Shown here: piece by piece, positions 3,067 through 59,581 of the stretch
Position numbering within the stretch: the stretch's first letter is position 1
Layout: every line of letters begins with the position of its first letter
Source: Fidelibacterota bacterium
Lineage (GTDB): Bacteria > Fidelibacterota > Marinisomatia > Marinisomatales > TCS55
Reading direction: 5' to 3'
Assembly (NCBI GenBank): GCA_002724735.1
Contig: PBPT01000082.1
Span: forward strand, 41,016 to 105,015
Length of the DNA stretch: 64,000 bases
Notes under the pieces: generated by a model
Database searches by the model: none
Told to the model about the DNA's origin: nothing
Seen by the model: the letters and a program-made list of their open reading frames with translations, nothing else
Program-made: the position numbers and the translations under genes

Positions 3067-3101
3067 TTTAGTTCTCCTGTTGGATATCGTTTTACTAACT
3101 G

Positions 3102-3109
3102 TATTTATG
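3102..3109 (-). promoter_or_regulatory. T4-type late promoter box (CATAAATA on minus strand) upstream of sheath gene
   Basis: Plus-strand tatttatg = minus CATAAATA, about 36 nt upstream of the ATG at 3066. The same NATAAATA box recurs in front of many structural genes, and a gp55-like sigma factor is encoded in the window. Confidence 0.5.
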
Positions 3110-3176: not shown

Positions 3177-3512
3177 ATGCGTCCTTTATGCAAATGTAAG
3201 CAACGGCCTGCGGCCATAAACTATTATAAAGATGGTAAACCCTACTATAGAAAGCTGTGCGAAAAATGTTTACGCAATGGTCTTAATCATGGAGTGCCTA
3301 AGTGGCAACAATATGGTTATGAAAAAAAAGAAGTTTGTGAAAAATGTAACTATAAAAGCAAACACTCAGAAGTATTTAATGTTTTCCACATAGACGGGGA
3401 TTTAAATAATTGTAGACCTACAAATTTAAAAACAATTTGTGCTAACTGCCAGCGTATTGTACAGAAGCAAGGGGTTCGCTGGAAACAAGGTGACCTTCGA
3501 CCTGACTTTTAA
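3177..3512 (+). CDS. HNH-motif endonuclease-like protein (free-standing homing endonuclease candidate)
   Basis: 111 aa. ..FHIDGDLNNCRPTNLKTICANCQ.. fits the HNH (beta-beta-alpha-Me) pattern, with flanking CxxC pairs (CEKC, CANC). Lone plus-strand gene between two minus-strand genes. Its last 71 nt overlap the convergent ORF 3442..4092. Confidence 0.55.
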   Translation: MRPLCKCKQRPAAINYYKDGKPYYRKLCEKCLRNGLNHGVPKWQQYGYEKKEVCEKCNYKSKHSEVFNVFHIDGDLNNCRPTNLKTICANCQRIVQKQGVRWKQGDLRPDF

Positions 3513-4092
3513 GATCTTGTATAGTCCCATCATTATACAAAATTGCATCAAAATGGTTATTAGTATCAATCCATTTATATTCACTAGCATGTATATCATA
3601 TGCAGACATTAAATCACTTCCTGTTTGGTTATCTAATATTGCTTGACCAAACCATTCAGGATCTGTACCACGTTTTACTTGCCAAATTTCTCCGCCAAGA
3701 TCTCTAATAACATTTTGTTCATTTCGAAATCTCACATCAGGAATAACAAATTCTTTAGTAGGATTGTTAATTATTTTTTGTTTTACCATGCTTACCCATA
3801 TACCATCGTAAAAGCCATTACGCATACAATCAGTGCCAAACTCTTGTAAAACTAACCTAGGTGTAATTTCACGGCCTGTTTCCTGTGTCCAAAACTGGTC
3901 AACTTGTTCTCTCCATTGCCTAGATATATGACTATCACCTTCTAGCATATCCCTATCCCAACTGAATAGTTCAGCTACTGCATCTTTTAGTTTATCTGCA
4001 AATGATATTTTTTCAAAACCGTACTCGTCTACAAGATAGTCACTTACTGTACCTTTACCGGAACCAATAAGTCCACAGATACCAATAATCAT
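3442..4092 (-). CDS. gp1: Deoxynucleoside monophosphate kinase (T4 gp1-like)
   Basis: 216 aa. P-loop GLIGSGKGT. ..VIPDVRFRNEQNVIRDLGGEIWQVKR.. and ..YNDGTIQDLKSQV.. parallel T4 gp1 ..IVPDTRQDHEMDAARAMGATVIHVVRPG.. and ..TNDGSLEELFSKI.. (from memory). Confidence 0.7.
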   Translation of the reverse strand: MIIGICGLIGSGKGTVSDYLVDEYGFEKISFADKLKDAVAELFSWDRDMLEGDSHISRQWREQVDQFWTQETGREITPRLVLQEFGTDCMRNGFYDGIWVSMVKQKIINNPTKEFVIPDVRFRNEQNVIRDLGGEIWQVKRGTDPEWFGQAILDNQTGSDLMSAYDIHASEYKWIDTNNHFDAILYNDGTIQDLKSQVEGHLVSSEPLASVQYAGS

Positions 4093-4119: not shown

Positions 4120-4148
4120 ATTATATGATAATTTTAGCTTGTTGTCAA
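4120..4148 (-). promoter_or_regulatory. Sigma70-type early promoter, perfect consensus TTGACA-N17-TATAAT
   Basis: Minus strand reads TTGACA (4148..4143), a 17-nt spacer, then TATAAT (4125..4120). 27 nt follow, including AGGAG, before the ATG at 4092. Confidence 0.7.
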
Positions 4149-4914: not shown

Positions 4915-4932
4915 TCTCTACTCTCCATATAG

Positions 4933-4953
4933 TATTTATCGTTACGATAAATA
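4933..4953. promoter_or_regulatory. Back-to-back late promoter boxes (GATAAATA on each strand)
   Basis: tatttatc at 4933..4940 (minus GATAAATA, serving gene 4156..4914) and gataaata at 4946..4953 (plus). The plus box ends 5 nt before the ATG at 4959, which predicts a leaderless or near-leaderless late mRNA. Confidence 0.45.
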
Positions 4954-6119: not shown

Positions 6120-7543
6120 TGCAACATTTTTATGACGGACAGATTAGACGCTATACAACACAAATGATGCGTATTCTAAGTAATTTTCCTGTTATAGACG
6201 GAGACGGGCAAACTAAAGAAGTACCTGTAATGTATGGTGACCTTACTAGGCAAGTTGCAAATATTATAAGAGAAAATAGTGAAAATAAACTACCTAGTGC
6301 TCCGCGAATAAGTGTTTATATAACAGGATTAGAACTAGATAAAGATAGGTTAACAGATTCAACTTACACTAGAAAAACTAATATACGTGAACGAGCATAT
6401 GATGAAACTGCAAAAGAATATGTCAACACAGAAGGCAAAGCATATACAGTGGAAAGACTTATTCCTACTCCTTACTTAATGAGGTGTAATGCAGACATAT
6501 GGGCAAGTAACACTGATCAAAAATTACAATTACTTGAACAAATTTTAGTATTGTTTAATCCTAGTTTAGAAATGCAAACAACAGATAATTTTATTGACTG
6601 GACAAGTATTACAGTTGTACATTTAGAAAATGTTCAATGGAGTAGTAGAAGTGTGCCAGTTGGCGTAGACACAGAGATAGATATTGCTACACTTAGTTTT
6701 AGTATTCCTGTGTATATAAGTCCGCCTACTAAAGTACGTAAGATGGGCGTCATTACAAATATTATTACAAGTATGTTCGATGAGACAAACGGAACAATCG
6801 AAGATGGCATATCTCAACCTCAATTAAATGCATATGACGATACATCATTGCCAGGTAAATCAACTGACTCTAGAGGTTCAAGGGTTGGTTCAACAGCTGG
6901 TGGACATTCAGCTAATGTTAACTTTGCCCAATGGACAGTATATGTAAGTCAAGGAAATGCACAGCTAGTTGCTAACGGTATGGTCGGTGTTAAAAACTGG
7001 AGAGAAATATTCACTGCACTACCTGGTGTTTATGCCGCAGGAGTAAGCAGAATATTCTTAACAAATGATGATAATTCTATGACTGCTACAGGTACTTTTG
7101 CTATTAATCCTCTTGATGAGGGAATGATTGCTATTGATTTTGATACCGATAGTTTCCCTGCAGATACTATTATTACAAGTAGTTCGGGCTCTAGAACATC
7201 AGTAGATTATGTTATTGATCCTACAAATTATGATCCTACTCCTATTAAAGTTTCAGGACTTAGATTGTTACTATTAGATAATGTAGGTGATGCAGATGCA
7301 ACTAATGTTCCAAATGCTTGGGCTAATGCAGATGGTACCGGATTTGTTGCAAAGATAAATGATATTATTGAATGGGACGGCTCCAAATGGAATATTATAT
7401 TTGATGCATCGGCAACTACAACAACCACATATATAACTAACCTACATACACAAACCCAATACAGATTTAAAAACCAAGAATGGTTATTAAGCATAGACGG
7501 AGACTATCCAGTAGGGACCTGGAGGATCGAACTCAGCGGATAA
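6119..7543 (+). CDS. gp15: Tail sheath stabiliser / tail completion protein (T4 gp15-like) with long C-terminal extension
   Basis: 474 aa. MQHFYDGQIRRYTTQMMRILSNFPV matches T4 gp15 MFGYFYNSSFRRYATLMGDLFSNIQI. About 200 aa longer than T4 gp15. Confidence 0.75.
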   Translation: MQHFYDGQIRRYTTQMMRILSNFPVIDGDGQTKEVPVMYGDLTRQVANIIRENSENKLPSAPRISVYITGLELDKDRLTDSTYTRKTNIRERAYDETAKEYVNTEGKAYTVERLIPTPYLMRCNADIWASNTDQKLQLLEQILVLFNPSLEMQTTDNFIDWTSITVVHLENVQWSSRSVPVGVDTEIDIATLSFSIPVYISPPTKVRKMGVITNIITSMFDETNGTIEDGISQPQLNAYDDTSLPGKSTDSRGSRVGSTAGGHSANVNFAQWTVYVSQGNAQLVANGMVGVKNWREIFTALPGVYAAGVSRIFLTNDDNSMTATGTFAINPLDEGMIAIDFDTDSFPADTIITSSSGSRTSVDYVIDPTNYDPTPIKVSGLRLLLLDNVGDADATNVPNAWANADGTGFVAKINDIIEWDGSKWNIIFDASATTTTTYITNLHTQTQYRFKNQEWLLSIDGDYPVGTWRIELSG

Positions 7544-7551
7544 TTACTTGT

Positions 7552-7992
7552 ATGAGTGCAAGTATTATATGTAGTGGAGCTTTATTCTATACTCTAAACA
7601 CGAATCGCTTTTTATTTTTACATCGTAGTAATGGTAAAAAATCTGATGTTTGGGGGTTAGTAGGTGGCACAAATGAAGCAAAAGAAACTCCATGGGAAGG
7701 TCTCAAAAGAGAAATAATTGAAGAAATTGGTGAACTTCCTCCTCTAAAGAAAACGTTGCCACTTGAAAGTTTTTTAAGTAATGATAAAAAATTCTTATTC
7801 CACACTTATCTTTGTATTGTAGAAGAAGAATTTATTCCGCAACTTAACAAAGAACATGACGGTTTTGCTTGGTGTAGTTTTACTAAATGGCCAAAACCCT
7901 TACATCATGGACTACGTAACACACTACAAAGTAAAATTAATCTTACAAAACTTGAAACTGTTTTTCAAACCATTAATTTACTTGACAAATAA
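7552..7992 (+). CDS. Nudix hydrolase
   Basis: Nudix box GGTNEAKETPWEGLKREIIEEIGE (GX5EX7REUXEEXGU). Start set at ATG 7552, 8 nt after the gp15 stop, instead of track start 7480, which overlaps gp15. Confidence 0.8.
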   Translation: MSASIICSGALFYTLNTNRFLFLHRSNGKKSDVWGLVGGTNEAKETPWEGLKREIIEEIGELPPLKKTLPLESFLSNDKKFLFHTYLCIVEEEFIPQLNKEHDGFAWCSFTKWPKPLHHGLRNTLQSKINLTKLETVFQTINLLDK

Positions 7993-8010
7993 GGCAAATA
8001 ATAGTATAAT
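7982..8010 (+). promoter_or_regulatory. Sigma70-type early promoter, perfect consensus, for the heptose operon
   Basis: ttgaca at 7982..7987, a 17-nt spacer, tataat at 8005..8010. Only 6 nt (agttat, no SD) lie between the -10 and the hldE ATG at 8017. Confidence 0.7.
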
Positions 8011-8016
8011 AGTTAT

Positions 8017-9156
8017 ATGAAAGTTCTAGTTCTTGGAGATATAATTACTGACAAATACATCTACGGTACTTCTACACGTATTAGTCCTGAGGCTCCTGTG
8101 CCAATAGTGAATCTTACAGATGTTAAAACTTCATTAGGTGGCGCTGGTCTTGTAAGTAGCAATTTAAAAAATTTAGGTGTAGATGTAACATTAGTATCTA
8201 ATGAACAACCAAAAAGTGTAAAAACTAGAATTATAGCTGATGGACACTACATTACAAGACTAGATGAAGATCAAAAAGCAGACGGAAAAGCTGTATTAAA
8301 AAATATTCTCAAAAGTGATTTTTCTTCATTTGATTATGCTATACTAAGTGATTATAACAAAGGTGTATTAGATCACTGTAATGAAATTATAGACCATATT
8401 AATAGTTATGGCTGTAAAGTTATTGTAGATCCAAAACGTAATTATACACATTACAAAAATGCATGGCTTGTAAAACCAAATGCAAAAGAATATAAAGAAT
8501 TTCAGTTTGATAAGCACGAAGGAAATATTATTGTTACAAATGCATCTGGTGCTATTAGAGCAGAGTTTGATGGCGAGCAACATTTTATTATACCTGAACA
8601 GGTTGAGGTTAGTGATGTTACTGGAGCAGGAGATTGTTTCTTAGCGGCATTTGTATATGGTCTTACAAAAGGTAAAAACATAAAAGATAGCTTAGAACTT
8701 GCATCTAAAGGAGCAACCGAAAGTGTTAAGCACTTAGGAACGTACACGCTTTCATTAGATGATATTGAAGAAACCACTGTGTTTACTAACGGTGTTTTTG
8801 ATATATTGCACAAAGGACATTTGCATTTACTTCAAGAAGCTAGTAAACTAGGAAGTCGTCTTGTTGTAGCAATTAATTCAGATGATAGTGTAAAAAGATT
8901 AAAGGGTAATGATCGCCCTATTAATGATGTAAAAAAACGCACTGAACAATTAGCAATGTTACCTTGGGTTGACGAGGTACATGTTTTTGATTATGATACT
9001 CCTTATGAACTTATAAAACATATAATGCCAAGTATAATTGTAAAAGGAGGCGATTATACTACAGATACAGTTGTAGGTAATGACTTAGCAGAAGTGAAAA
9101 TTATTCCTACGTTAGAAGGTTATTCTACAACAAAAATAATAGAGGATATTAAATGA
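8017..9156 (+). CDS. hldE: Bifunctional D-beta-D-heptose 7-phosphate kinase / D-beta-D-heptose 1-phosphate adenylyltransferase
   Basis: 379 aa. GDIITDKYIYGTSTRISPEAPVPIV and DVTGAGDCF match the E. coli HldE kinase domain. TNGVFDILHKGHLHLLQEASKLGSRLVVAINSDDSVKRLKG..VKGGDY matches the adenylyltransferase domain. Confidence 0.9.
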   Translation: MKVLVLGDIITDKYIYGTSTRISPEAPVPIVNLTDVKTSLGGAGLVSSNLKNLGVDVTLVSNEQPKSVKTRIIADGHYITRLDEDQKADGKAVLKNILKSDFSSFDYAILSDYNKGVLDHCNEIIDHINSYGCKVIVDPKRNYTHYKNAWLVKPNAKEYKEFQFDKHEGNIIVTNASGAIRAEFDGEQHFIIPEQVEVSDVTGAGDCFLAAFVYGLTKGKNIKDSLELASKGATESVKHLGTYTLSLDDIEETTVFTNGVFDILHKGHLHLLQEASKLGSRLVVAINSDDSVKRLKGNDRPINDVKKRTEQLAMLPWVDEVHVFDYDTPYELIKHIMPSIIVKGGDYTTDTVVGNDLAEVKIIPTLEGYSTTKIIEDIK

Positions 9157-9761
9157 CAAAAAAGGTAGTAATTGATAATGCTGTGCCAAAAGAAGTGTTT
9201 AAAAAAATCCAAGAACATATGTTAAGTTTACAATACAATTGGCATTATGGAGAAGGTGTAGCAGATAAAGGCGATGTTGGTAACTTTCAATTTGTCCATA
9301 CAATACATGAAGGTTATTATATGGATCGACCAAATGACTATCAGGTAATATATCCTGTCATGGATGTGTTGGGTCCTCAATTACTAATAAGGGTAAAGGC
9401 AAACTTACTTACAAAAACAGATACAAATGAAGTACATGGCATGCATAATGACACAGTTATTCCAGGTGCATTAACTGCGGTATACTATTTAAATACTAAT
9501 AATGGATACACTATTTTCGAAGATGGAGACAAAGTCGAAAGTGTTGAGAATACATTGGTTATTTTTCCTGCAAAAATTAGACATAGTGGTGCTAGTTGTA
9601 CAGACAAACTTAGAAGAGTAGTAATTAATTTTAATTTTATACCTTGGAGAGATGATCCTAAATGGCATGCACTAATGGATGACGAAGATATAAGATATCG
9701 GAATCATTGGGAAAAGGACATGCAATTACCTTATGATAACAACGGAGTGCCGTGTAAATGA
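9153..9761 (+). CDS. Putative 2OG-Fe(II) oxygenase-fold protein
   Basis: 202 aa. Candidate HxD..H triad (MHNDT ... IRHSG) followed by RRVVINFNF, as in P4H-type double-stranded beta-helix oxygenases. ATGA overlaps on both sides. Confidence 0.45.
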   Translation: MTKKVVIDNAVPKEVFKKIQEHMLSLQYNWHYGEGVADKGDVGNFQFVHTIHEGYYMDRPNDYQVIYPVMDVLGPQLLIRVKANLLTKTDTNEVHGMHNDTVIPGALTAVYYLNTNNGYTIFEDGDKVESVENTLVIFPAKIRHSGASCTDKLRRVVINFNFIPWRDDPKWHALMDDEDIRYRNHWEKDMQLPYDNNGVPCK

Positions 9762-10579
9762 GAATACTAGTAACTGGATATAAAGGATTTATCGGAAAAA
9801 ATTTATCTAACTATTTGCTTACCCAAGGACATGATGTGGAGGGTTGGGAGTATATAGATAATACTGTGCCAGATCCTAGTTCATATGATTGGGTCATTCA
9901 TCTTGGTGCTATTACAAGCACTACATATACAGATGTAGATCAAATAATTGAACAAAACTTTGAAAATAGTATGCGTATGTTGCAGGTTTGTGAAAATTAT
10001 GGAACTAATTTTCAATATGCTTCTAGTGCTAGTGTTTATGGTCCTACTACACATTTTACAGAAAATGGACCTTTACTTCCTCAATCTCCGTATGCATGGT
10101 CAAAATATTTATTTGACCGATTTGTAATTAAACATATTGAAGAATTTACTGTGCTTGTACAAGGATTTAGATATTTTAACGTATATGGTCCTGGCGAAAA
10201 TGATAAAGGAAGCCAAGCATCTCCTTGGACTAAGTTTAGATTACAAGCGTTAGATGAAGGAAAGATTGATGTATTTGAAGGTAGCAGTGAGTACAAACGT
10301 GACTTTGTCTGTGTTGAAGATGTTTGTAAAGTACATCAAAAAATGTTGACTGTCGATGCAAGCGGCATCTACAATGTTGGAACAGGAAATCCAGAAAGCT
10401 TTGAAAACGTAGCTAGAGAAATTGCAAAAAAATACGATGCTACAATTAATTATATTCCAATTCCAGATAATATTAAGCCTCAGTACCAAAAATATACTTG
10501 TGCAAATCTAGACAAATTAAATACTGTGATTGAAATGGATTGGAAAGGTATAAAGGAATATATTAATGCTACAGAATAA
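9758..10579 (+). CDS. hldD: ADP-L-glycero-D-manno-heptose 6-epimerase
   Basis: 273 aa. GYKGFIGKN Rossmann motif. VQGFRYFNVYGPGENDKGSQAS..FEGSSEYKRDFVCVEDV..NVGTGNPESF..YIPIPDNIKPQYQKYTCANLDKL closely parallels E. coli RfaD/HldD. Confidence 0.85.
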   Translation: MRILVTGYKGFIGKNLSNYLLTQGHDVEGWEYIDNTVPDPSSYDWVIHLGAITSTTYTDVDQIIEQNFENSMRMLQVCENYGTNFQYASSASVYGPTTHFTENGPLLPQSPYAWSKYLFDRFVIKHIEEFTVLVQGFRYFNVYGPGENDKGSQASPWTKFRLQALDEGKIDVFEGSSEYKRDFVCVEDVCKVHQKMLTVDASGIYNVGTGNPESFENVAREIAKKYDATINYIPIPDNIKPQYQKYTCANLDKLNTVIEMDWKGIKEYINATE

Positions 10580-11258
10580 CGGAGATCATAATATACTTTG
10601 TCCGTTTGGACCTATGATTTATGAAAGTAAAATAAGTGAGGAAGATATAAAATTTGTAAAAAGTTTTGCAGAAATAAATAGAGATTCTGCATCGCAAGGG
10701 TCTGCTTTATCAGGAAATATAAAAGAACAACGAGGTAATGAAAAAGCTGATCCAAAAATGCTATCTACTATGATGGAAGTACTACGTCCGCATATTATAA
10801 ATTGGATAATTGCTGATGACCAAAGAAAGTTAATTAATGCAGGTGCTTCTAGCGAAGAAAAAATTATGATAGAAACAGTTGACTATGACAGCATGAAATG
10901 GCATTTAGGAAATGGTGTATGGTTTAATTTTATGAAGCAACACGAATTTAATCCTTTGCATTGCCATACAGGTACGTTAAGCGGTATTATAATGGTTGAA
11001 GTTCCGGAAGTAATAGCTACTGAACCCGATATATTTCCTATGGATTCTAATGCAAGATGCCCTGGACAATTAGAATTTGTGCATGGTAGTTATGGCGCAG
11101 GCGCACATAGGATTATTCCTAAAACTGGACAAATTTTTGTATTCCCAGCAGAACTAAGGCATCAGGTTTATCCATTTCAAAGTGATGTAGAAAGAATTAC
11201 TATGAGCTGGAATGTTTTTGATATTTCGTTTGATAAGAAAAAGGATATGTGGAACTAA
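10566..11258 (+). CDS. Putative 2OG-Fe(II) oxygenase (marine phage/bacterial TIGR02466-like pattern)
   Basis: 230 aa. ..NPLHCHTGTLSGIIMVEVPE.. and ..GQIFVFPAELRHQVYPF.. resemble the conserved blocks of that family (from memory). Confidence 0.4.
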   Translation: MLQNNGDHNILCPFGPMIYESKISEEDIKFVKSFAEINRDSASQGSALSGNIKEQRGNEKADPKMLSTMMEVLRPHIINWIIADDQRKLINAGASSEEKIMIETVDYDSMKWHLGNGVWFNFMKQHEFNPLHCHTGTLSGIIMVEVPEVIATEPDIFPMDSNARCPGQLEFVHGSYGAGAHRIIPKTGQIFVFPAELRHQVYPFQSDVERITMSWNVFDISFDKKKDMWN

Positions 11259-11650
11259 TGAAAGAACCTACAAGATTAGAAGGACATGTACCCAAAGGTT
11301 GGGGCTATGAATTAATATGGGCAACTAACGACAAGTACTGTGGTAAGATAATGGTATTTGAAAAAGTAGGTGCAAAGTTTAGTATGCATTTTCACAAAGA
11401 AAAAGAAGAAACATGGTTTGTTAATAGCGGAAAATTTATCGTAAGATGGATTGATACTTCTAATGCTACGTTACACGAGAAAGAATTAAAAGAAGGTGAT
11501 GTTTGGCATAATCCTCCTTTACAACCTCATCAGTTAGAATGTTTAGAACCTATGAGTTCAGTAACTGAAGTTAGTACAGCTGATTCAGTAGAAGATAATT
11601 ACAGACTTATTCCAGGCGACAGTCAAAGTAAAGAAACAGAAAATGGTTGA
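11249..11650 (+). CDS. Cupin-fold protein, phosphomannose-isomerase type II C-terminal-like
   Basis: 133 aa. PKGWGYELIWATNDKYCGKIMVFEKVGAKFSMHFHKEKEETWFVNSGKF follows the WG..Y..K.i.v..G..lS.Q.H..r.E.W.v..G pattern of PMI-type cupins. Confidence 0.55.
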   Translation: MELMKEPTRLEGHVPKGWGYELIWATNDKYCGKIMVFEKVGAKFSMHFHKEKEETWFVNSGKFIVRWIDTSNATLHEKELKEGDVWHNPPLQPHQLECLEPMSSVTEVSTADSVEDNYRLIPGDSQSKETENG

Positions 11651-12254
11651 AATAAGTTGGAGTGACGACTATGATCCTAGTCCTAATTATATCGCACCTA
11701 AGTGTGTAGTAGGATTAGATAGAGATGGTGTAATCAACAAAGATCTAGGCACATATTGTTACAAAATAAAAGACTTTGAACCTATTCCTGGTAGCATAGA
11801 AGCTATTGCTAAACTACGCAGATTAGGTCATAAGATTACAATTATCACAAATCAAGGTGGTATTGAAAAAGGATTATTTACGCAAGAAGATGTAGATAAC
11901 GTACATAAGCATTTGTTTGAATTACTAGGTAAAGCTGGTTGCACTAGTATAGACGGAATCTACTATAGTGCTAGTAGCAGAAAAAATGATATGTACGCGA
12001 AGCCTAATATAGGAATGTTCAAACGATGTGAAAAAGAAATACCACACGTAAAGTTTGCACAAGGTTTTTATGTTGGTGACAAAATTACTGATTTAAAGGC
12101 CGCAATGAAAATAGGTGCTATTCCTATCTTAGTACGCACCGGATATGGTGAAGAAACAGAAAAATTATTAAATAGATTTACTTACAAAGCAATAAAAAAG
12201 CGTACCAAAGTTTTTGATACGCTTTCTGACTTTGTAAAAAGTTTAGAAAATTAA
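11643..12254 (+). CDS. gmhB: D-glycero-D-manno-heptose 1,7-bisphosphate phosphatase-like HAD-IIIA phosphatase
   Basis: 203 aa. VGLDRDGVINKD (DxDG motif), ITNQGGIEKGLFT, KPNIGMF and YVGDKITDLKAAMKIGA..LVRTGYG parallel E. coli GmhB. The Zn-binding CxH..C.C insert appears to be absent. Confidence 0.75.
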   Translation: MVEISWSDDYDPSPNYIAPKCVVGLDRDGVINKDLGTYCYKIKDFEPIPGSIEAIAKLRRLGHKITIITNQGGIEKGLFTQEDVDNVHKHLFELLGKAGCTSIDGIYYSASSRKNDMYAKPNIGMFKRCEKEIPHVKFAQGFYVGDKITDLKAAMKIGAIPILVRTGYGEETEKLLNRFTYKAIKKRTKVFDTLSDFVKSLEN

Positions 12255-15200
12255 GCTTGAGCTTCACCCCATTTAATAATAATATTCGAATTAATATCTG
12301 AGCCAGTCACTTTATACACATTAATAGCTAAAACGTCAGGTCCATTAGGAAATGTTCCTCTGCCACCTAATGGCGTATTTGTTAACTCTTTCAACTGAGC
12401 AAGATCTAGTGTAGATCTCTCTCCAGGCACAGCAATAAATGAGAACACAGTTTCTCCAGGCTGAGCAAACGGTGGTTGTTCAAATGTTGCTTCAATTGTT
12501 CCTGATCCTAGTGCAAGTGTTCCAGTGAATGCGTTATTAAATGATATTTCATAAAAAGTATAACTTGCCCACGTAGTTGATGTAATATTACTTACATAAG
12601 TGTTAGCAGGGAACGTACCTCCACCGCTTATTCCTGTAATAGCAGTACCAACTACTGTACCCGCACTATCTACACTTGCTGTAGTTAAGTAAGCATAGTT
12701 TTTATTAACAAGTGCCGCGTTGTAAGCAATAGTATAGTGATCAATTGATCCTCCTGGTATACTACCTGTTGTATTTTTAGAAAGTCTAAAGTATCCCCAG
12801 TTATTACTGGATGGAATATATCCATCTACAATAGTTGTATTAGCTGGTATATGTGTACCTGTAATAGATTTACCTAGTACAAAATTTATATCATTACTAC
12901 CAAATACCGCTCTATAGTCTGATCCACTAACCTCTACATATCTACTACCAGGCCAGTTAGAATATGTACCGCTGTTTACTTGTGCAGTAAGAGCAGCCAC
13001 AGATGTCATATTAGCAGTTGTAGCTGATTCACCTGTTGTCCAAGTAACACCACCACCTGATGCTATCTGAGCAAAACTAGGTTGTCCACCTTGTGCAACT
13101 CCACTCAATCCTGACCAATTTACATCTGAGGGGTTAAGTGGATAATTTTGAGGATTAAGCACACCTTCAACAACAATACCACCGCTTCCTGATTCTGATG
13201 TAACTTCAAGACCCATCAGCAATAGCTGAGCACGATTAAGTAGTTCTCTTTCTCCTAAATCACCTGTAATAGCATTAGAAACACTAGGTGCTAAACGCAT
13301 CATAAATGCAGTCTGTTTTGTAGTACTAACAGCAATACCAGTTTCAGCATAACTAAAAATATATCCACGATCTTCATCAAATCCACCGTCTGTTAGGAAC
13401 GCACTACCCCAATGACTAATTAATGGAGTAATTGTTTGTGATATAATTATTACACCGGTCCTTGCATCGTGTGTAGTAGCAGGACCTCCTGTATAACTAC
13501 GTTCTGCTCCTGCTTGGAATGTAAGTAAGCTAGCATTTCTAGTAACTCCAGTCAATGTATTTGTTGCCTTATTATTAGCTGTGTATGTCATTACTTCGTT
13601 ATCAATATACACTGTGGCTTGATATGGAAAGAAGCTACTATCTTCTAGTTCGATAGTTGTTTGATTGTTTGTCATTGCTGTCTTAAGTTTACCTGGAGGA
13701 CCTTCGTTTGTTACTTCGTACCTAACAGGCAAGTTACCTGAACGCATAAATGCTTCTGTGTTTACGTTTGAATTACGCATTCTATGTGCAAAAACAAAGT
13801 TACCGTCTGCACCTCTAACCATCCAATCAATAAATCCAGCACCATACCAAGTATATTGTATTCCAATCATTTGCATTTTAGCTATATCCATATGATAGCC
13901 ACTTGGTCCTGTGCCGTCTAATTTATCTAAATTAAACTCACTTTGTTTTGCTTTTTTATCTCTTACTAGTGCTACTTTAGCTCCTGTAATATCAATTACG
14001 CCGCGCCAGTCTGGTGTTATTGTGCAACTAGTATCGTTGGTAACATTTGTAACTACATGTGTCATACCTTTAATAATAATTCTATCGCCAGCTGTTAATT
14101 GATCTCTAAATCTTGTATTTGTACCTGTTACTAGGTTTGAATCTTGGCTAAGTGCTATTGTTCCGGCAATCTGTTTTGTACCAGTACGCTGTACTGCACT
14201 AATTTGTGTACCATCAAATTCCCATAAAATTCCGTTTTGGTCATCAAATATTCCTGAACGCACAGTTGCACCGTGCCAACTTACAACACTCATTTGTGCT
14301 CCAAAGCCTAATACTGCTGTTGTAGCACCCAGCCTTCTTTTCGATCTAACTTTAAAAGTTCTTTCGTCTACAACAGATACAACAGTGTAATCAAATTCTT
14401 CACCAACTGCTGTGTCAGGTCCACTGTTATAACCTTCTGTTTCAATACCTAATAAACGTATTACGCCGCCTACTTGTACCCCATGATCATTGTCATCAGT
14501 GACCACTGTAATTAAACTATCAACTTCAATATCCTCAGCTACTACACTTTGTAGATCATAGCTTGGTGCAAACAATGCACCTGTGGTATACATAATACCT
14601 TTACCTGACTGATATCTAATATATTTTTTACTTTGACGTATTGCTTGAGCACCATGTTGTGGGCCTCCTGTCCCAAGTTGCACACCTCCATCATACGGTC
14701 TATGTACAAAGAAACTGTCTGGTCTTGGGTAAACTATACCACTAACAGGAGAAACTGATACATCAATTGCACCTGTAGTACGTGCTTGATATCTTAGTGT
14801 ATTTGATGTGGGAACTTCTGTTGCAAAGAAAGAACCTCCAGCTAAAGCATGATTGTTTGATCCACCATCATCAGATGTGATACTAACAATAAATGTATCT
14901 CCAGGCACTAGTCCATGTGCATTAGGAAATGATACATTTAATGTTGCCAAGGCCGCATAACTTACTGTTTGATTGACAGCTATAGTTCCTGTTGTAGCTT
15001 CTGACATTGTTACCGTAGATATAATATCTATGTTAGTTCCTGGGTTAGCAATAGTATACGTACCTGTTACTGCTGTTATTATATCTCCACCGACAGCATC
15101 CACATATAGTTCTAAATCGTGTAAAGGACTGGCTCCATCAAGTGTTGTGCCAGGAATATTAATTCTGTCTCCAACCTTATAACCACTTCCTCCGTTGAAT

Positions 15201-18200
15201 ACTGTTATGTTATCATATGAACTAAAGTTTCTTCTTATATTAAATGTAGCATTAGTGCCTGTGTTTGGAACATTAGTACCTGCTACACTATTATATGGTC
15301 CTGTTGGTTGTGAGGCTGTACCTGCAATGGTTATAGCAGTTATCGCTCCAGCGGCTTCATTACTTACTTGTGTAATAGTAATTGTTGCATCATTAGCAGG
15401 ACTTGCGCCTCTTAAATTTGAACCTGGTATTACTAACTGTTGTCCAACAGCATATCCTGAACCTGGAGTTTGTATACCATCTGTAAGGTCAACAGTATAG
15501 TCTCCTTCTCCAAGTTCAACTCTAAATGTAGCACCTGTTCCTTGTCTATTTGAGCCTACAACTCCTAATGCTGTCCTTCCATTCACTGCTGTACCAGTAG
15601 TAGTATATGTTAAGATTGCACCATTTGCATCAACACTAGCTATGGTACCTGTAATATCGTTTATTGGAGAACTTCCACCTAAACCAGTGGCATTACCTGC
15701 AATAGTAAATGTTTCTCCTACAAGATAGTTTAATCCGCCGCCACCTGTAACCTGATAGCTTGCTCCTGTGACTTGTACTGTAAATGTAGCATTTCCGTCA
15801 CCTCCTGCGGTATTAGAAGTAAATGCAACATTTGTAAATGTTTCGTCTCTTTGCGGAGCATTTGTTGTAGTAAATGCAATGCCAGTAATCCTTCCAGCTA
15901 ATCCCACAGAACCAACATCGAATGTTATAGCACTTGCTCCACCGTTACCTAAAACACTATCTGCAATAGTCACAGTTGATCCCTGAGCATTACCTAATCC
16001 AGGAGTAGCTATAGTAATATCTTCTAAATCAATATCTCCTGCTGTTGATATAGTGCCTACGTCCATTGTAAAAGCGGCTGCACCGCCACCTCCTAGCGAA
16101 CTATCTTGAATTGTAATTGTGTCGCTTACTGAGTGTCCTGATCCTATTGTTTTTACTACTACGCTAAGAACAGCACCAATAGCGTTGACCGTGATGTCAA
16201 ATGTTCCAACTACTCCTGATCCAGTACTTGTACCGCTAACATTAGTATATGTGCCAGCCGTTCTTGATGCATCACTAGCACCAAAGTTAGTCATAGTTTT
16301 ATGGCCGCCTGCTGGCTGTACTATAATGTCAAATGTTGCTCCACCTCCGCCTGAAGAGGCAGTAACACCTGAGTATGTACCTGGAGTTCTATTTGTAGGT
16401 GTTTGTGTTAAGTTAGTTAAACTTAGGATTTCACCTCCTGAGCTAACTGTATTAACTGTAACATAGTTGTTATGTGTTGCACTACCTCCTGTAGGTTGAA
16501 TTACATCACCTCCTAATACTATGCTATCACCAACGACATATCCTGATCCGCCATTATTTATAGTAACACCAGTATAAGTTGTGTTTAAATATTCAACATT
16601 AAAGCTTGCATTTGTGCCTGCATTACCATACGGATTATGAGAAAGTGGTGTTAATATAGCAAATCCATTAAAGCTTAATCCGCTTATTGTTGCTGTATTA
16701 ATGTCACCGTCACTATTAACAGAAGTTACAAATATTGTTGCATCATTAGCTGGTGTTTCTCCGCCTAGCAAATTACCTAGGACTTTAATAGTATCTCCTG
16801 CTACATAACCGTATCCGCCATTTGCTACACTATTCAATACGTAAGTGTTACTTGAATCTCCTGAAGGAGATATATTAAAAGTAGCATCTGCTCCATTAGC
16901 TGATACATTTGAACCGCTTATTTCAGTATAGTTTACAACATTACCAATTCTTGTATTAACAAAATTACCGCTGAACTGTACTCCTAGTCCTGAAGCACCA
17001 GTACCTATTGTTTGCACATATATTGCTGTACCGTCTCCTCTATCAACAGCCATATTTGCAGCCAAACCTGCTGTGTCTGTAACTTGCAAAGTATCAGTGT
17101 TTGGTGCCGCATTTGCTGTTGTAGTCAAAGTTAAAAATGTTCCGCCGCCTGCACTTGTATCAATAATTTGTGTTACTTGTGAACCAGCAGGGATACTAGC
17201 TTGTGTTAATGGAGAACCTACTTCTGGTGCCGCGCCGTCAAACGGTAAAATAGTGCTTCCACTTGCTACAGCTAATTGTGTCGTAAAACTTCCCGATGAA
17301 CCATTACTAGCTATAGTAAATGTTGGCTGACTTATTGATGCTCCAGTATAAAATCCAGCTTTGCGTAATTGACAGTATGTTGTAACTAAAACTTCACCGT
17401 TATTTGTTCCTACTTTGGCCTTTGCATAATAGTTAAAAGTTTTATCACCCGTTACGCTATTAATTACAAATGAGCCTTCTGCTCTAGCGGCTCCAACAAC
17501 ACTATCTTCTAATGCTTTAATTGTAATAGGTTGTCCGTCTTCAAATCCGTGTGCAACTACTGTAGTGACAGTAATTAAACTAGCACCTATGCCTCCAGTA
17601 CCTGTACTTGCGTCAGTCGTTACATTTTGTACTGCTGTATTTGTTGCAGGTATTTCATAAACACTTGGATACCCTCTAAGTGTACCTATAGCTGACCATT
17701 TAGTAGGCTGTAACCCATATTCGAAGTCAGCGTCAAGCATACTAAGAGGATGGGCAATACGCATACGCTCAATTGCATCAGTACCAAAATCATATGGTCT
17801 TACTTGTACAACACTTTTCCCATTTTCTACTTTTTCTACAAAAACTTGTAGATGATCAGTTGCGTCATGAGAGGTAGTATTGTAATTAAAATATATTCTT
17901 GTAATTGCATCAGTTGTTTGTAAGTATGTTCCAAAATCAGAATCATAACCTTTGGTAATTAATTTTGCTGTACCACCGTTTTCTGCATTAGAAAAGTTAT
18001 ATATGATTTCATTTTTTGTTGTGTTAGTAACAAGTAATAATTCGTCTAAACCCCAACGACCTTGGACTTTAATATTTCCTACTCCTGTATCTACTAAAAC
18101 AGGGAGCTGATCTAATCCTAAATTTATTACATTTATGACTATTCCAGCAAGTTCGTTTATCCTAACTATAGCACCAGCTTCTGCATTGTCGCCAGTTGTA

Positions 18201-18628: not shown

Positions 18629-18634
18629 ATTCTT

Positions 18635-19507
18635 TTAAATCCCAAATGCTATCGCAAACGCTGTTGATGTTTCATCTACATATTTTTTGTTTGGCACTGC
18701 TGTTACTCCTGATACTGCGCCACTTAGTGTTGCGGTTGTAAAAGATGCTGTTGATGGTGTAGTTGCACCTATTGTTGTATTATCAATTGTACTGTTATTT
18801 ATAGGTCCTACTATTCTTCCGTTTACACTATCGACTAACAAAGTACTGTTATCTGAATATACAGAGCCATTAAGATCTCCTGTTACTCCGCCAGTAGCTG
18901 ATATCATACTAGCAACACTCATTGTACCGCCAATATTTGCATTTCCTACTACGCCCAAACCTCCGGATACTTTTAAAGCACCAGTTGAAACACTTGTACT
19001 TTGTGTAGTATTTGTGATACTAACTTCACTAAAGTTTCTTGCTTGATCTAAAACTGTAATTACACCATACACTGTACCATCTACATTACCATAATACAAT
19101 GTATCTGGTGCAGATAAAGGAATAGTCCATGTTAGTCTTCCTGAGCTTTTTCCTTGTGCAGAGTCTCCAACTGTACTATCACTGTGCCTTAAACCACTAC
19201 TATAAACTGCTGTTGATCCAGGTGTAACACTACTAAAGATTTTAAAAACTAAAGTTGTAAATGCTAAATCTATTGTAGATGTTTGATTTCTATATACGGT
19301 TATGCCAGGTTGATTATTTAATTGGCCATCAAATCTGAAATTGCCTGCGGCTTCCACAAAGTCGTAATCTGCCGCTAATCCTGCTTCAGAATTATCTACA
19401 GATAAAGTTAAAGTACTAGCAGATATATTTCCGTTAGCGTCTACTGTAAAATTAGGGCTCTTGAACCCGTATTCTGATCTAAAAGGCGTATTAACTGTCG
19501 TTGGCAT
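18635..19507 (-). CDS. Tail-fibre-like structural protein
   Basis: 290 aa, S/T/G/N-rich. C-terminal ..VTAVPNKKYVDETSTAF.. carries the xKKYVD motif that is also present in the 320-aa fibre-like ORF (LTNKKYVDDAITNAF). Confidence 0.45.
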   Translation of the reverse strand: MPTTVNTPFRSEYGFKSPNFTVDANGNISASTLTLSVDNSEAGLAADYDFVEAAGNFRFDGQLNNQPGITVYRNQTSTIDLAFTTLVFKIFSSVTPGSTAVYSSGLRHSDSTVGDSAQGKSSGRLTWTIPLSAPDTLYYGNVDGTVYGVITVLDQARNFSEVSITNTTQSTSVSTGALKVSGGLGVVGNANIGGTMSVASMISATGGVTGDLNGSVYSDNSTLLVDSVNGRIVGPINNSTIDNTTIGATTPSTASFTTATLSGAVSGVTAVPNKKYVDETSTAFAIAFGI

Positions 19508-19546
19508 TCTTTACTCCATATAGTATATTTAGCCTAGTTATGAATG

Positions 19547-19948
19547 TCAACTAGTTAATGGATTTTGGTTTTGAAAGTAATTTGCAGTGTAAATAAACTT
19601 CGCACCTTCATATCCTGTTTTAGCTGTTATAAGTAAGTCAACATATGATTGATTTACTGTGACTGACAGGTCTACAAGATCGTTGCCTAAATTGCTACGA
19701 GAAAATGCATTTAGATTAGCATAGTCTACACCTACTGCAACAATACACTTGATTATTTCTTTATTAGCATTGTTATAGTCTATTGAGATTGTAAATTCTG
19801 CTGTGCTAAATTCACCTGCATGCCAGCGTTCTACTTGTGTATTTGTATAAGCTTGTTTCCATGGACCATTATGAGAGGTAGCACCATTATTGCGAAGAAG
19901 TAATGTTTTTTTAATTCCGTCTTTAAAGTAATTTGCAATGTTAAACAT
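19547..19948 (-). CDS. Hypothetical protein (fibre module)
   Basis: 133-aa ORF with a late-type box (GATAAATA) and SD-like AAAGGA upstream. No recognisable motif. Confidence 0.4.
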   Translation of the reverse strand: MFNIANYFKDGIKKTLLLRNNGATSHNGPWKQAYTNTQVERWHAGEFSTAEFTISIDYNNANKEIIKCIVAVGVDYANLNAFSRSNLGNDLVDLSVTVNQSYVDLLITAKTGYEGAKFIYTANYFQNQNPLTS

Positions 19949-19972
19949 AATGATCCTTTGTCATTATATTTA

Positions 19973-22747: not shown

Positions 22748-22749
22748 GA

Positions 22750-23685: not shown

Positions 23686-23775
23686 ATTTATAGATCCTAT
23701 CGTTAGTAAACATAGTAGTTAATTGCTACTATGAATATTTAGCGACCAAAGATTTATAAATTAGATAAAGTGACT

Positions 23776-25629: not shown

Positions 25630-25639
25630 GTTCTATTCC

Positions 25640-26389: not shown

Positions 26390-26390
26390 A

Positions 26391-27062: not shown

Positions 27063-27081
27063 TTTCTTTCCTCACACATTA

Positions 27082-33359: not shown

Positions 33360-33392
33360 TTAGCACTCCATAAACCTTATATATATTTATCA

Positions 33393-42127: not shown

Positions 42128-42144
42128 GTATTTCTCCTATACTG

Positions 42145-42152
42145 TATTTATA
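42145..42152 (-). promoter_or_regulatory. T4-type late promoter, perfect TATAAATA
   Basis: Minus strand reads CCTATAAATACAGTATAGGAGAAATACGTG: the box, then 8 nt, then GGAG, then the GTG start. Confidence 0.6.
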
Positions 42153-58683: not shown

Positions 58684-58702
58684 GGCTTATCCTTTTACAG
58701 TG

Positions 58703-59563: not shown

Positions 59564-59581
59564 CCTAGTACTTACCGATGC

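Follow-up and report, generated by a model that had tools for sequence, protein, structure and literature searches.

A six-gene phage operon predicted to make ADP-heptose and its place in a possible glycosylation cassette

What does a tightly packed sugar operon in a phage genome make, and on what is the product spent? The operon lies in a 64-kb stretch of DNA (the window) that was examined within the ~339-kb genome of an uncultured marine jumbo myophage, whose virion genes resemble those of Atu_ph07, PA5oct and SCTP-2 and do not match the T4-like cyanophage type. Our best explanation is that the operon would form one half of a phage glycosylation cassette, the half that supplies the donor. 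Taken in full, i.e., including a cupin, a GT9-type transferase, carbamoylation of the sugar and a division into early and late expression, we give this explanation an even chance of being right.

The operon and its promoter

Six overlapping ORFs occupy positions 8017-12254 of the plus strand, and Pfam, NCBIfam and PHROGs agree with a first-pass annotation on their order: HldE (8017-9156), an oxygenase-like gene (9153-9761), HldD (9758-10579), an oxygenase (10566-11258), a cupin (11249-11650) and GmhB (11643-12254). The tight coupling described there was confirmed in the gene layout and junction sequences, with ATGA at 9153 and 9758 and subsequent overlaps of 14, 10 and 8 nt. The 10-nt one presupposes a GTG start of the cupin gene at 11249; if translation began at the in-frame ATG (11258), the overlap would shrink to 1 nt (TAATG). 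The annotation had also described a plus-strand metabolic block between virion genes. This is correct for the operon, but not for the start of the block, which comprises nine genes from ~4806; it opens with a gene for a 437-aa structural protein, one for a gp15-like protein (both virion genes) and a NUDIX gene, and the operon is the block's metabolic tail.

Judged by alignment, the HldE-, HldD- and GmhB-like proteins are 32-36% identical to their E. coli counterparts, whose catalytic motifs are retained; the canonical bacterial pathway comprises GmhA, HldE, GmhB and HldD. The 379-aa HldE-like protein is a predicted fusion of heptose-7-P kinase (PfkB) and heptose-1-P adenylyltransferase (PF00294, PF01467) that matches the HldE model NF008454 (2e-86; 290 bits, under the 521 cut-off). 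It aligns end to end with E. coli HldE (32% identity, E 4e-71) and keeps DVTGAGD and NGVFDILHxGH, with ~100 residues fewer; the linker between the domains and two insertions in the kinase domain are among those missing. The 273-aa HldD-like protein, a predicted ADP-glyceromanno-heptose 6-epimerase of the SDR type (TIGR02197, 5.6e-66; 223 bits, under the 274.6 cut-off), is 36% identical to E. coli RfaD (E 1e-46), and its GFRYFNVYGP and YxxSK motifs are present. The 203-aa GmhB-like protein, a predicted HAD-IIIA heptose-1,7-bisphosphate 7-phosphatase (NF006506, 4e-39; TIGR01662, 88.5 bits, over 44.6), is 34% identical to E. coli GmhB (E 4e-24) and keeps LDRDGxIN, TNQxGI and VGDKxxD, without the Zn-binding Cys/His loop. 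The enzyme models are all under the NCBIfam equivalog cut-offs. With these identities, the earlier claim that four of the five canonical steps to ADP-L,D-heptose are encoded holds, and the product of the operon is very probably the nucleotide sugar ADP-heptose, made by a route that would lead from sedoheptulose-7-P to ADP-L-glycero-beta-D-manno-heptose.

The first-pass annotation proposed looking for the same operon in related phages. Conservation was counted in the 49 loci with enough sequence among 83 related loci. The heptose genes are widely kept: the cupin in 49 of 49, HldD in 47 (both misses have HldD upstream of HldE, beyond the counted range) and GmhB in 41, being missing from 8. The oxygenases are not kept, as detailed below.

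The promoter, TTGACA-17-TATAAT at 7982-8010 (+), was called perfect, and it does score 12/12 against the sigma-70 consensus. The window contains five such matches with at most one mismatch (four of them perfect), where 1.27 would be expected, and the count stayed below five in all 100 shuffles. An alignment of five relatives shows no change in the -35 and -10 elements but a variable spacer; among 43 distinct upstream sequences the promoter is perfect in 23, every time 5-6 nt from the ATG. Since the -10 element in the window ends only 6 nt ahead of the HldE ATG, the operon mRNA is probably leaderless, and there is no Shine-Dalgarno sequence. The other three perfect promoters in the window precede genes for a dNMP kinase, an SbcD-like nuclease and a gp55-like late sigma factor, which are early/middle-class genes. 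A conserved consensus promoter of this kind implies early transcription by the host polymerase, and the earlier proposal of early expression thus gains support from both the relatives and the other promoters.

The cupin and the isomerase step

In bacteria, the ketose-to-aldose step is performed by SIS-type GmhA. No such protein was found among the 1688 ORFs of the window and the 83 related loci. With E. coli GmhA as the query, tblastn against a phage collection gave no match to a cyanophage record, so cassette-bearing cyanophage genomes appear to be without SIS-type GmhA. One cyanophage gene is annotated 'phosphoheptose isomerase', but its product is a mini-HAD protein. A GmhA may still be encoded elsewhere in the ~339-kb genome, or by the host, and would count against our proposal.

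Unlike the canonical pathway, the operon has a 133-aa metal-binding cupin (Cupin_2, 3e-7) in the place of GmhA. No other partner of the heptose genes is as well conserved as the cupin, which always adjoins them in 35 cyanophage/marine phage records, and its HxH...E...H motif and KGWGYE are invariant. The first-pass reading of it as a PMI-type cupin is reasonable: a relative matches the PMI C-terminal family PF01050 at 1.4e-7, passing the threshold, and the cupin can be aligned to the C-terminus of E. coli CpsB (hhalign E 5.8e-4, with a probability of only 29%). Based on its resemblance to type II phosphomannose isomerase, we infer that the cupin is the likeliest GmhA substitute, i.e., a sedoheptulose-7-P isomerase that would perform the ketose-to-aldose step. 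That annotation included neither the cupin as a likely fifth step, nor the transferase and carbamoyltransferase as consumers, nor the homology to the cyanophage 'LPS' cluster.

It is also conceivable, though we think it rather unlikely, that heptose-7-P comes from a GmhA of the host or of a distant part of the phage genome, and that the cupin acts later with the SDR as a CapF-like or RmlC-like epimerase/ketoisomerase, yielding a heptose other than L-glycero-D-manno. The examined stretch is part of the genome, a fact that leaves room for this idea, and a fold search with Foldseek was non-discriminating: similar scores went to OxdC, KdgF, lyxose isomerase and the cupin of CapF, a nucleotide-sugar C3-epimerase domain that thereby ranks level with the sugar isomerases. 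There is also a weak match to the WbuC family (3.7e-4). However, the His/His/Glu/His metal site is intact in a PMI-type II motif pattern, and both the relative that passes the PF01050 threshold and the cyanophage records without a match to E. coli GmhA argue for an isomerase. So do clusters in Patescibacteria (e.g., L113), in which genes for GT9 (PF01075, 2e-30), cupin, PfkB kinase, NT-HAD and SDR epimerase follow one another co-directionally, without GmhA, and the cupin is ~40% identical to that of the phage. These loci differ from ours in being cellular, in fusing NT and HAD rather than kinase and NT, in having no carbamoyltransferase and in having an extra PMT_2 membrane transferase.

Where the heptose may be spent

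Two candidate consumers are encoded 8-11 kb downstream of the operon, on the other strand. The first, at 22750-23685 (-), is a 311-aa protein whose AF2 model (pLDDT 78, pTM 0.80) has a GT-B fold of the GT9 (heptosyltransferase) type. Its best Foldseek matches in the PDB are all GT9 (3tov at 3e-10; TibC, WaaC and WaaF at ~1e-7), and matches in BFVD carry the labels RfaF, Aah/TibC or GT9, while PF01075 gives only 20.9 bits, under the cut-off of 22. The second is a 601-aa NodU/NolO-type O-carbamoyltransferase at 19973-21778 (-), with matches to PF16861 (6e-58), PF02543 (1e-29), phrog_1601 (3e-167) and NodU (5.9e-41). They are orthologues of PSSM2_307 (6.8e-88) and PSSM2_308 (2.4e-170), respectively, of phage P-SSM2. 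The GT9-like protein is the probable consumer of ADP-heptose, and the carbamoyltransferase would then probably tailor the transferred heptose by O-carbamoylation. A 322-aa lineage-specific protein (21779-22747, -) lies between the two; it has no Pfam, NCBIfam or PHROG match and no homologue in the 83 related loci.

The carbamoyltransferase adjoins GT9 in every related locus that reaches that far, and the pair is near the operon in all of these loci. In 20 of 36 loci, a virion protein of one type is encoded between operon and carbamoyltransferase; in the other 16 it is missing there and the pair directly abuts the operon. In one locus (L065), GT9, carbamoyltransferase and HldE follow co-directionally, and another (L067) starts at the carbamoyltransferase, with HldE next. 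The window's copy of the intervening protein (12251-18628, -, convergent with the operon) has 2125 aa and is rich in Thr (12.7%), Gly (12.5%) and Ser (7.8%).

From 33359 down to 19973, the window is collinear with the fibre / Gly-rich / chaperone / GT / carbamoyltransferase block of P-SSM2. The pair is part of a tail-fibre module and stands behind a late-type motif: CTAAATAT at 23735-23742 (-), 57 nt 5' of the GT9 start. Among NTAAATAY motifs, 15 of 40 are 8-70 nt 5' of same-strand starts, as compared to ~1 expected, and these mostly precede structural genes. The distance of 57 nt is farther out than the usual 24-42 nt; in relatives, TATAAATAT occurs at -34 to -46 of GT9. Given an early donor operon and a late-type motif at the consumers, the donor pool may be built early and spent late.

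We favour the phage's own fibre or other virion proteins as the acceptor, by comparison with TibC and AAH, which act on autotransporters. The 2125-aa protein may be one such acceptor. TibC and AAH have the GT9-type GT-B fold of the phage enzyme, use ADP-heptose, as it probably does, and are encoded beside a large repetitive protein that is their substrate. However, sequence identity is 11-12%, and the invariant Cys residues of the phage family are only C18, C39 and C225, so the four-Cys iron-finger cluster of the TibC/AAH type is not seen. In the account of Freeman et al. 2023 given in PMC12619734, phage-encoded transferases of mycobacteriophages were shown experimentally to decorate capsid/tail proteins; the systems in that account use other transferase families and other sugars, and no comparable phage-encoded nucleotide-sugar pathway is described there.

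The standard, published view of such 'LPS genes' in cyanophages and pelagiphages is different (PMC3037559, PMC7029224, PMC7824862): during infection, the host's LPS core, or a different glycan of its surface, would receive heptose or carbamoyl-heptose, and, if so, superinfection would be blocked or progeny kept off doomed cells. We regard this as a serious but less probable reading. GT9 enzymes act mostly on LPS, and the model is matched equally well by TibC and by WaaC and WaaF, which are LPS core heptosyltransferases. A donor pathway that is expressed early also suits early surface remodelling. In Pseudomonas, carbamoyl-heptose belongs to the LPS core, and the same three chemistries occur there: an ADP-heptose donor, GT9 transferases (WaaC/WaaF) and a NodU/CmcH-family 7-O-carbamoyltransferase, WapO, which is encoded beside the heptosyltransferases and modifies inner-core HepII (PMC8005017). 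That cellular LPS-core line, however, includes kinases and many further transferases, whereas here a single transferase accompanies the pathway. In each of two distant phage lineages, it shares a tail-fibre module with the carbamoyltransferase, and the late-type motif would be late for a protective surface change. In addition, the LPS of marine picocyanobacteria is reported to lack heptose. Fibre proteins remain our favoured acceptor.

The oxygenases and the kind of cassette

The first-pass annotation took the two interleaved oxygenases as a sign that the final sugar is further modified, and proposed profile searches of each ORF. These searches were clear for the second, of 230 aa (PF13759, 5.4e-14, 52.8 bits, over the cut-off of 27; phrog_81, 3.4e-28). 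For the first, of 202 aa, the call is weaker (phrog_274, 1.5e-45; phrog_81, 6e-9; Pfam 2OG-FeII_Oxy_5, only 0.011), although an H98-x-D...H153...R motif is visible and jackhmmer connects it with clear oxygenases. A fixed role in the pathway is not supported by comparison: 32 of the 49 related loci have HldE-HldD-cupin(-GmhB) without any oxygenase, the first slot is filled in only 10 and the second in only 3, and the oxygenases that do occur are of several subfamilies at no fewer than five different junctions.

That they are working members of the pathway, hydroxylating or oxidising the heptose or its nucleotide to a modified ADP-heptose, is therefore doubtful, more so than the readings weighed above. 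In its favour, the only two oxygenase genes in the window are both inside the operon with the coupling overlaps preserved, the P-SSM2 oxygenase adjoins the epimerase, and Iyer et al. place 2OGFeDO enzymes in the cyanophage carbamoyltransferase cluster. Oxygenases are also ~11-fold enriched in sugar zones of the 83 loci (34 in 351 kb, versus 6 in 678 kb of flanks), but the loci are phylogenetically related, so this statistic overstates independence, and the flanks are long structural genes, which are unlikely to take insertions. Moreover, marine phages carry 2OG oxygenases in several copies at scattered sites (PMC3037559), and a protein acceptor is an equally possible target of hydroxylation. 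Given their absence from many loci, their varied junctions and their enrichment around sugar genes, the oxygenases look like optional, lineage-variable accessories that may have a tailoring role, not core steps.

Very improbable, finally, is a transfer of heptose to phage DNA bases, which GT-B enzymes are known to glycosylate, or to a small secreted or secondary metabolite: a dNMP kinase is encoded 4 kb upstream, but the window showed no gene of the base-hydroxymethylase or TET/JBP type, the oxygenases are PF13759 and PF13640 rather than Tet_JBP, and it is fibre genes, not those of replication, that accompany the cassette. Iyer et al. do propose a secondary-metabolite role for the carbamoyltransferase/2OGFeDO/cupin/HAD cluster.

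The closest known system is the cyanophage 'LPS gene' cassette (PSSM2_307-314 in P-SSM2, T4-GC 303-308, and also S-SSM7, S-SM2, S-CAM1 and P-TIM68). It has a homologous kinase, nucleotidyltransferase, HAD phosphatase, cupin, HldD-like epimerase, carbamoyltransferase and GT9-like protein, adjoined by homologous fibre, Gly-rich and chaperone genes. In our phage, by contrast, kinase and nucleotidyltransferase are fused, GmhB is full length (203 aa, versus a 114-aa mini-HAD), and the donor genes stand apart as an early operon, on the strand opposite to the transferase and carbamoyltransferase. The cassette is thus a good example of a known cyanophage kind, rather than a new system.

Gene content and setting of the operon

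The six genes of the operon lie on the plus strand at 8017-9156 (HldE), 9153-9761 (ORF2, oxygenase-like), 9758-10579 (HldD), 10566-11258 (oxygenase), 11249-11650 (cupin) and 11643-12254 (GmhB). The ORF table and junction sequences agree with the first-pass annotation, which described these genes as fused by ATGA overlaps at 9153 and 9758, then by overlaps of 14, 10 and 8 nt. The 10-nt overlap requires that the cupin start at the GTG at 11249; if translation began instead at the ATG at 11258, which is in frame, the junction would be TAATG. The plus-strand block begins at about 4806, and a virion protein, a gp15-like tail-sheath stabiliser and a NUDIX hydrolase precede the operon, so that its genes form the metabolic end of a block of nine. 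At the other end, GmhB overlaps a convergent gene (12251-18628, minus strand) by 4 nt, leaving no intergenic space, and a long terminator-like hairpin (minus strand, 12227-12195) lies within the 3' end of the GmhB coding sequence. The convergent gene encodes a 2125-aa protein rich in Thr, Gly and Ser (12.7%, 12.5% and 7.8%), which matches no Pfam family and contains repeats of the form GGxGYxxGD...GG.SPxND, e.g., at residues 604-629, 964-991 and 1146-1171.

The identities proposed earlier for HldE, HldD and GmhB are upheld by Pfam and NCBIfam matches and by comparison with the E. coli proteins. HldE (379 aa) matches both the PfkB (PF00294) and cytidylyltransferase (PF01467) domains, and its residues 3-379 align to residues 13-472 of E. 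coli HldE (32% identity, E 4e-71) with about 100 fewer residues. It keeps DVTGAGD and NGVFDILHKGH, corresponding to the general DxTGAGD anion-hole and (T/H)xGH motifs. Its best NCBIfam model, NF008454, scores 290.5 bits (E 2e-86) against an equivalog cut-off of 521; HldE is thus a divergent, compact form, whose orthology of function is predicted rather than certified. The HldD-like short-chain dehydrogenase/reductase (SDR; 273 aa) matches TIGR02197 at 5.6e-66 (222.9 bits, cut-off 274.6), while the next SDR family reaches only 2e-21; it is 36% identical to RfaD and has the GFRYFNVYGP block and the GxxGxxG and YxxxK motifs of extended SDRs. The GmhB-like HAD-IIIA protein (203 aa) exceeds the cut-offs of TIGR01662 (88.5 bits, above 44.6) and TIGR01656 (88.6 bits, above 84.15) and scores 134 bits with NF006506, under the cut-off of 178. 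Its identity to E. coli GmhB is 34%, and every HAD motif is there (LDRDGxIN, TNQxGI, VGDKxxD); the Zn loop is missing. All three proteins fall below NCBIfam equivalog cut-offs, and we infer their functions from strong but divergent homology.

An identical HldE sequence occurs on a 338,594-bp contig, and relatives are found on marine metagenome contigs of up to 345 kb (ENA, JGI, TARA); many marine metagenome assemblies, and 249 IMG/VR stretches, contain close relatives of this HldE. For the gp15-like protein, the nearest matches are in the jumbo phages Phosso, Atu_ph07, PA5oct and SCTP-2 (31-34% identity), and these matches led us to reject the idea that the phage is a cyanophage, which its cyanophage-like sugar genes might suggest. 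PA5oct-type phages have gp15, NUDIX and a structural gene in this order, without sugar or heptose genes. We therefore regard the operon as an insertion into a jumbo-myophage backbone, and for the same reason the NUDIX hydrolase was rejected as a cassette member. A megablast search of positions 7400-12400 against 50,697 phage records found no DNA-level match, so relatives had to be sought at the protein level. The resulting comparative set consists of 80 IMG/VR loci and three ENA/NCBI metagenome loci (L001, L010 and L012), annotated against the window proteins.

Some features elsewhere in the window are also worth recording. No tRNAs were found in it. The Rfam cis-regulatory RNA motif 'freshwater-2' occurs at 44488-44562 on the minus strand (55 bits, gathering score 49.9), at the downstream end of a 470-nt gap, and overlaps by 3 nt the start of a 149-aa gene (44041-44490). 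A small ORF at 59138-59563 (minus strand) matches phrog_447 ('NAD synthetase') and several homing-endonuclease PHROGs, is bordered by large intergenic gaps (58684-59137 and 59564-59796), and may be a mobile endonuclease insertion.

The cupin and the missing isomerase

Conservation was counted over the 49 loci with at least 3 kb following HldE. The cupin is present in all 49, HldD follows HldE in 47 (it precedes HldE in the other two), and GmhB is present in 41. L012, L068, L069, L071 and L089 are among the relatives in which HldE, HldD and cupin stand ahead of the giant gene with no GmhB. From gene content, the phosphatase step appears to be dispensable or supplied elsewhere, while the cupin is never lost. 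E. coli GmhA, used as a query, gave nothing at E ≤ 10 among 1688 ORFs of the window and the 83 related loci, and only noise in a tblastn search of the window; against the phage collection it matched 13 records, none of them cyanophages.

The protein at 11249-11650 is a small metal cupin, in which the HxH...E...H site is invariant. Although the phage protein itself has no direct match to PF01050, a Chloroflexota homologue does (32.1 bits, above 23.6). An hhalign comparison of the cupin family profile with the phosphomannose isomerase (PMI)-like C-terminus of E. coli CpsB gave E 5.8e-4 with a probability of only 29%; in this alignment the RPWG/KGWG and HxH-E-W motifs match. The family occurs in 35 phage records, all of them marine, and always adjoins heptose genes, and relatives carry the JGI label 'mannose-6-phosphate isomerase-like'. 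In Patescibacteria, a homologous cupin lies in the order GT9, cupin, PfkB kinase, fusion of nucleotidyltransferase and HAD, epimerase, without GmhA. In one Patescibacteria MAG locus (L113, 6950-13815; also L108 and L112), the SDR epimerase is followed by a PMT_2-like membrane transferase and a further SDR, again without GmhA. A GmhA-independent heptose pathway in CPR bacteria, which have no LPS, is possible on the basis of this gene order.

The PMI reaction has its seven-carbon counterpart in the conversion of sedoheptulose-7-P to D-glycero-D-manno-heptose-7-P, and this is established chemistry. Given this analogy and the pathway context of the cupin, we infer that the cupin is the best candidate for the fifth step, i.e., for a sedoheptulose-7-P isomerase acting in place of GmhA. 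The cupin might instead have a CapF-like epimerase role: sequence and fold searches return generic metal cupins, with oxalate decarboxylase first, and so do not separate isomerase from epimerase or discriminate against this alternative. Our literature search found no paper that connects a cupin with GmhA or ADP-heptose.

The same enzymes recur in the 'LPS gene' cassette of cyanophages (the P-SSM2-type sugar gene cluster, T4-GC 303-308). Homologues of all seven cassette genes (kinase, nucleotidyltransferase, HAD, cupin, epimerase, carbamoyltransferase and PSSM2_307) lie within 8017-23685 of the window. The cyanophage gene annotated as 'phosphoheptose isomerase' (T4-GC 306, phrog_1238) encodes a mini-HAD of 112-114 aa with DxDGT, not a SIS isomerase, e.g., at 9113-9457 of the P-SSM2 locus (PSSM2_311) and 10272-10610 of the P-TIM68 locus. 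The cyanophage cassette therefore shares the operon's five functions, namely kinase, transferase, phosphatase, cupin and epimerase. Two further labels look wrong: 'cysteine dioxygenase' for the cupin (phrog_7851) and 'DNA endonuclease V' for the ORF2 family (phrog_274, 'denV' in P-SSM2). Phage 'LPS genes' have been known in cyanophage genomes since P-SSM2, and we know of no demonstrated function for them. Such gene sets in cyanophages, with PfkB kinases, nucleotidyltransferases, cupin 'sugar isomerases', epimerases, carbamoyltransferases, 2OG oxygenases and HAD phosphatases, were already described by Iyer et al. 2021 and Sullivan et al. 2010. Our locus is a further example of this gene set in a different, abundant lineage of jumbo phages.

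The interleaved oxygenases

The ORF at 10566-11258 is clearly a 2OG-Fe(II) oxygenase by its profile match to PF13759 (52.8 bits, above 27) and its iron triad, H132-x-H134...H208. The grounds are weaker for ORF2 (9153-9761), which we call oxygenase-like: its Pfam oxygenase score is 16.5 bits (below 27; 0.011), its match to phrog_81 is at 6e-9, H98-N-D100...H153 is present, and jackhmmer links it to clear oxygenases. It has no match to T4 endonuclease V, although its PHROG family, phrog_274, is so labelled.

The first-pass annotation took the interleaved oxygenases as a sign that the final sugar is further modified. What stands of this idea is that their placement around sugar genes is not random. 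Both oxygenases detectable in the 64-kb window are inside the operon, and across 1.03 Mb of related loci oxygenases are about 11 times as dense in sugar zones (34 in 351 kb, versus 6 in 678 kb), a figure counted over loci that share ancestry and thus are not independent, and with giant structural genes of low insertability in the comparison. What does not stand is membership in the core pathway. Among the 49 loci, 32 have no oxygenase, six have one and 11 have two. Their positions vary, lying between HldE and HldD (10 loci), GmhB and the carbamoyltransferase gene (10), cupin and GmhB (4), HldD and cupin (3) or at other junctions (2), and the exact gene order of our operon was found again in only two loci, L013 and L018. 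On these counts they do not belong to the core, and we read them as recurrent, optional accessory genes, which may tailor the sugar, hydroxylate the acceptor or merely accumulate in a plastic region.

The junctions themselves show a further regularity. ATGA stop/start overlaps flank the oxygenase between HldE and HldD on both sides, and in relatives without an inserted oxygenase the HldE/HldD junction has a single ATGA (examples are 9153-9156 and 9758-9761 of the window, and 11137-11140 of the metagenome locus L001). It seems that accessory genes are swapped exactly where coupled genes meet.

Timing, transfer and destination of the heptose

The perfect sigma-70 promoter reported ahead of HldE (TTGACA-17-TATAAT, 7982-8010) is confirmed, with a score of 12/12. 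Five sigma-70 sites with at most one mismatch, four of them perfect, occur in the window, compared to 1.27 expected, and none of 100 shuffles reached five. In aligned relatives the spacer and flanks differ, but both hexamers ahead of HldE (-35 and -10) are unchanged. The promoter is perfect in 23 of 43 distinct upstream sequences, with 20 different spacer sequences. Wherever a relative's promoter is perfect, 5-6 nt separate the end of the -10 hexamer from the HldE ATG, and no Shine-Dalgarno sequence is present (window 8005-8019; L001-L092), while most other window genes have GGAG-type Shine-Dalgarno sites. This arrangement suggests a leaderless first cistron, and the operon mRNA likely has a conserved leaderless start.

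The other three perfect promoters are on the minus strand, upstream of a dNMP kinase (promoter 4120-4148, gene 3442-4092), an SbcD-like nuclease (62607-62635, gene 61566-62579) and a gp55-like late sigma factor (63516-63544, gene 62639-63544, whose true start is probably near 63496). In T4-like phages, these gene classes are early or middle. These promoters look like the phage's early/middle promoter class, and the early expression proposed for the operon gains support from this as well as from the conservation of its promoter in relatives. A second motif, [ACT]TAAATA[CT] (NTAAATAY), is located 8-70 nt upstream of same-strand starts in 15 of its 40 occurrences, compared to about one expected, mostly before structural genes (e.g., minus strand, 3101-3108, 4932-4939, 19525-19532, 33383-33390 and 42144-42151); the distances to these starts run from 11 to 65 nt. 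It likely serves the gp55-like sigma factor as a late promoter. The exact T4 motif, TATAAATA, shows no enrichment (6 in the window versus 10 expected). Among the 15 genes preceded by NTAAATAY is, with the motif at -57, the GT9-like gene, which encodes a heptosyltransferase-type protein (22750-23685, minus strand), and in relatives TATAAATAT is found at -34 to -46 of GT9. Based on these promoter motifs, the donor pathway looks early and the transferase late.

The GT9-like protein (311 aa) gave a fair structural model (pLDDT 78, pTM 0.80), for which 30 of the top 31 Foldseek matches in PDB are GT9 structures (3tov, TibC, WaaC, WaaF; E 3e-10 to 4e-6, TM 0.46-0.67). Its viral structure neighbours are labelled RfaF, Aah/TibC or GT9. 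PF01075 scores 20.9 bits against a cut-off of 22, in the C-terminal nucleotide-binding part only, and hhalign against a bona fide GT9 gave E 1.4e-4. Sequence and profile searches of PDB yielded only chance matches to adenovirus-type 'Fiber' (E 0.09-0.4), so that the fold search alone was informative there, and the likeness to the protein heptosyltransferases TibC and AAH is a global fold match only. Cys 18, 39 and 225 are invariant in the family. Profile searches identify the gene at 19973-21778 (minus strand) as a NodU/NolO-type O-carbamoyltransferase (CarbT). CarbT adjoins GT9 in every related locus that reaches GT9, and in 16 of the 36 loci that extend at least 6 kb downstream it lies immediately next to the operon; in one of the related loci (L065), GT9, CarbT and HldE are consecutive and co-directional. 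Between CarbT and the GT9-like gene, the window has a 322-aa ORF (21779-22747, minus strand) with no homologues in the 83 related loci, where the two genes are directly adjacent; this ORF, like a 133-aa and a 290-aa ORF, has no informative family match.

From 33359 down to 19973, the window is collinear with P-SSM2 genes 301-308 (fibre, small, Gly-rich, chaperone, GT9-like, CarbT), with E values of 6.8e-88 for the GT9-like protein and 2.4e-170 for CarbT; in P-SSM2 the heptose genes directly follow CarbT. Two giant fibre-like proteins (28587-33359 and 33393-38318, minus strand; 1590 and 1641 aa) each have 7-8 CBM_5_12 repeats (chitin/carbohydrate-binding; E ~1e-45) and have a relative in PSSM2_301, a tail fibre protein of P-SSM2. 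At 24829-27888 (minus strand), three paralogous Gly_rich_2-type proteins (266, 249 and 268 aa) are interleaved with tail-assembly-chaperone-domain proteins (223 and 347 aa), and this set is also beside the GT9-like gene in P-SSM2 and several related loci.

The model that we propose has, in our estimation, about an even chance of being correct. The predicted operon enzymes would build ADP-heptose from sedoheptulose-7-P, with the cupin taking over GmhA's isomerase step; the GT9-like enzyme would move the heptose onto an acceptor late in infection, and CarbT would then decorate the transferred heptose. Our preferred acceptors are phage fibre or virion proteins, because the cassette is found together with fibre genes in two distant lineages, a late-type motif precedes the transferase, there is only one transferase, and the fold match to TibC is equally good. 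A strong alternative, already published (PMC3037559, PMC7029224, PMC7824862), is that host LPS or capsule is remodelled to exclude other phages. The carbamoyl-heptose of the Pseudomonas LPS core offers a precedent for it (PMC8005017), and we consider it possible but somewhat less likely. DNA or a secondary metabolite as the target is unlikely. Returning to virion heptosylation, a broader form of this reading is doubtful, but worth stating: both marine phage lineages, this jumbo lineage and T4-like cyanophages, would use a GmhA-independent route to ADP-heptose with the small PMI-like metal cupin as sedoheptulose-7-P isomerase, O-heptosylate virion or tail-fibre proteins late in infection via GT9, and then carbamoylate them. 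If virion O-heptosylation is true, it would be a phage counterpart of TibC/AAH autotransporter heptosylation, and the oxygenases would be optional modules for tailoring or acceptor hydroxylation.

What is new here is the split between core and accessory genes, the GmhA-replacement hypothesis with its support from cellular genomes, the early/late divide between donor and transferase genes, the likely leaderless start and the annotation corrections. The analysis shows that the heptose part of the 'LPS gene' system also exists in another marine phage lineage, which is very abundant and unrelated to the first. Its layout is clean, with a donor operon predicted to be early and, next to fibre genes, a transferase/CarbT pair predicted to be late. 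This raises the questions of whether the cupin is a non-orthologous replacement of GmhA, and whether the heptose ends up on the virion or on the host surface. The answers would correct the propagated annotations 'phosphoheptose isomerase', 'cysteine dioxygenase' and 'endonuclease V', and either answer would affect how these widespread auxiliary genes are read in ocean viromes.
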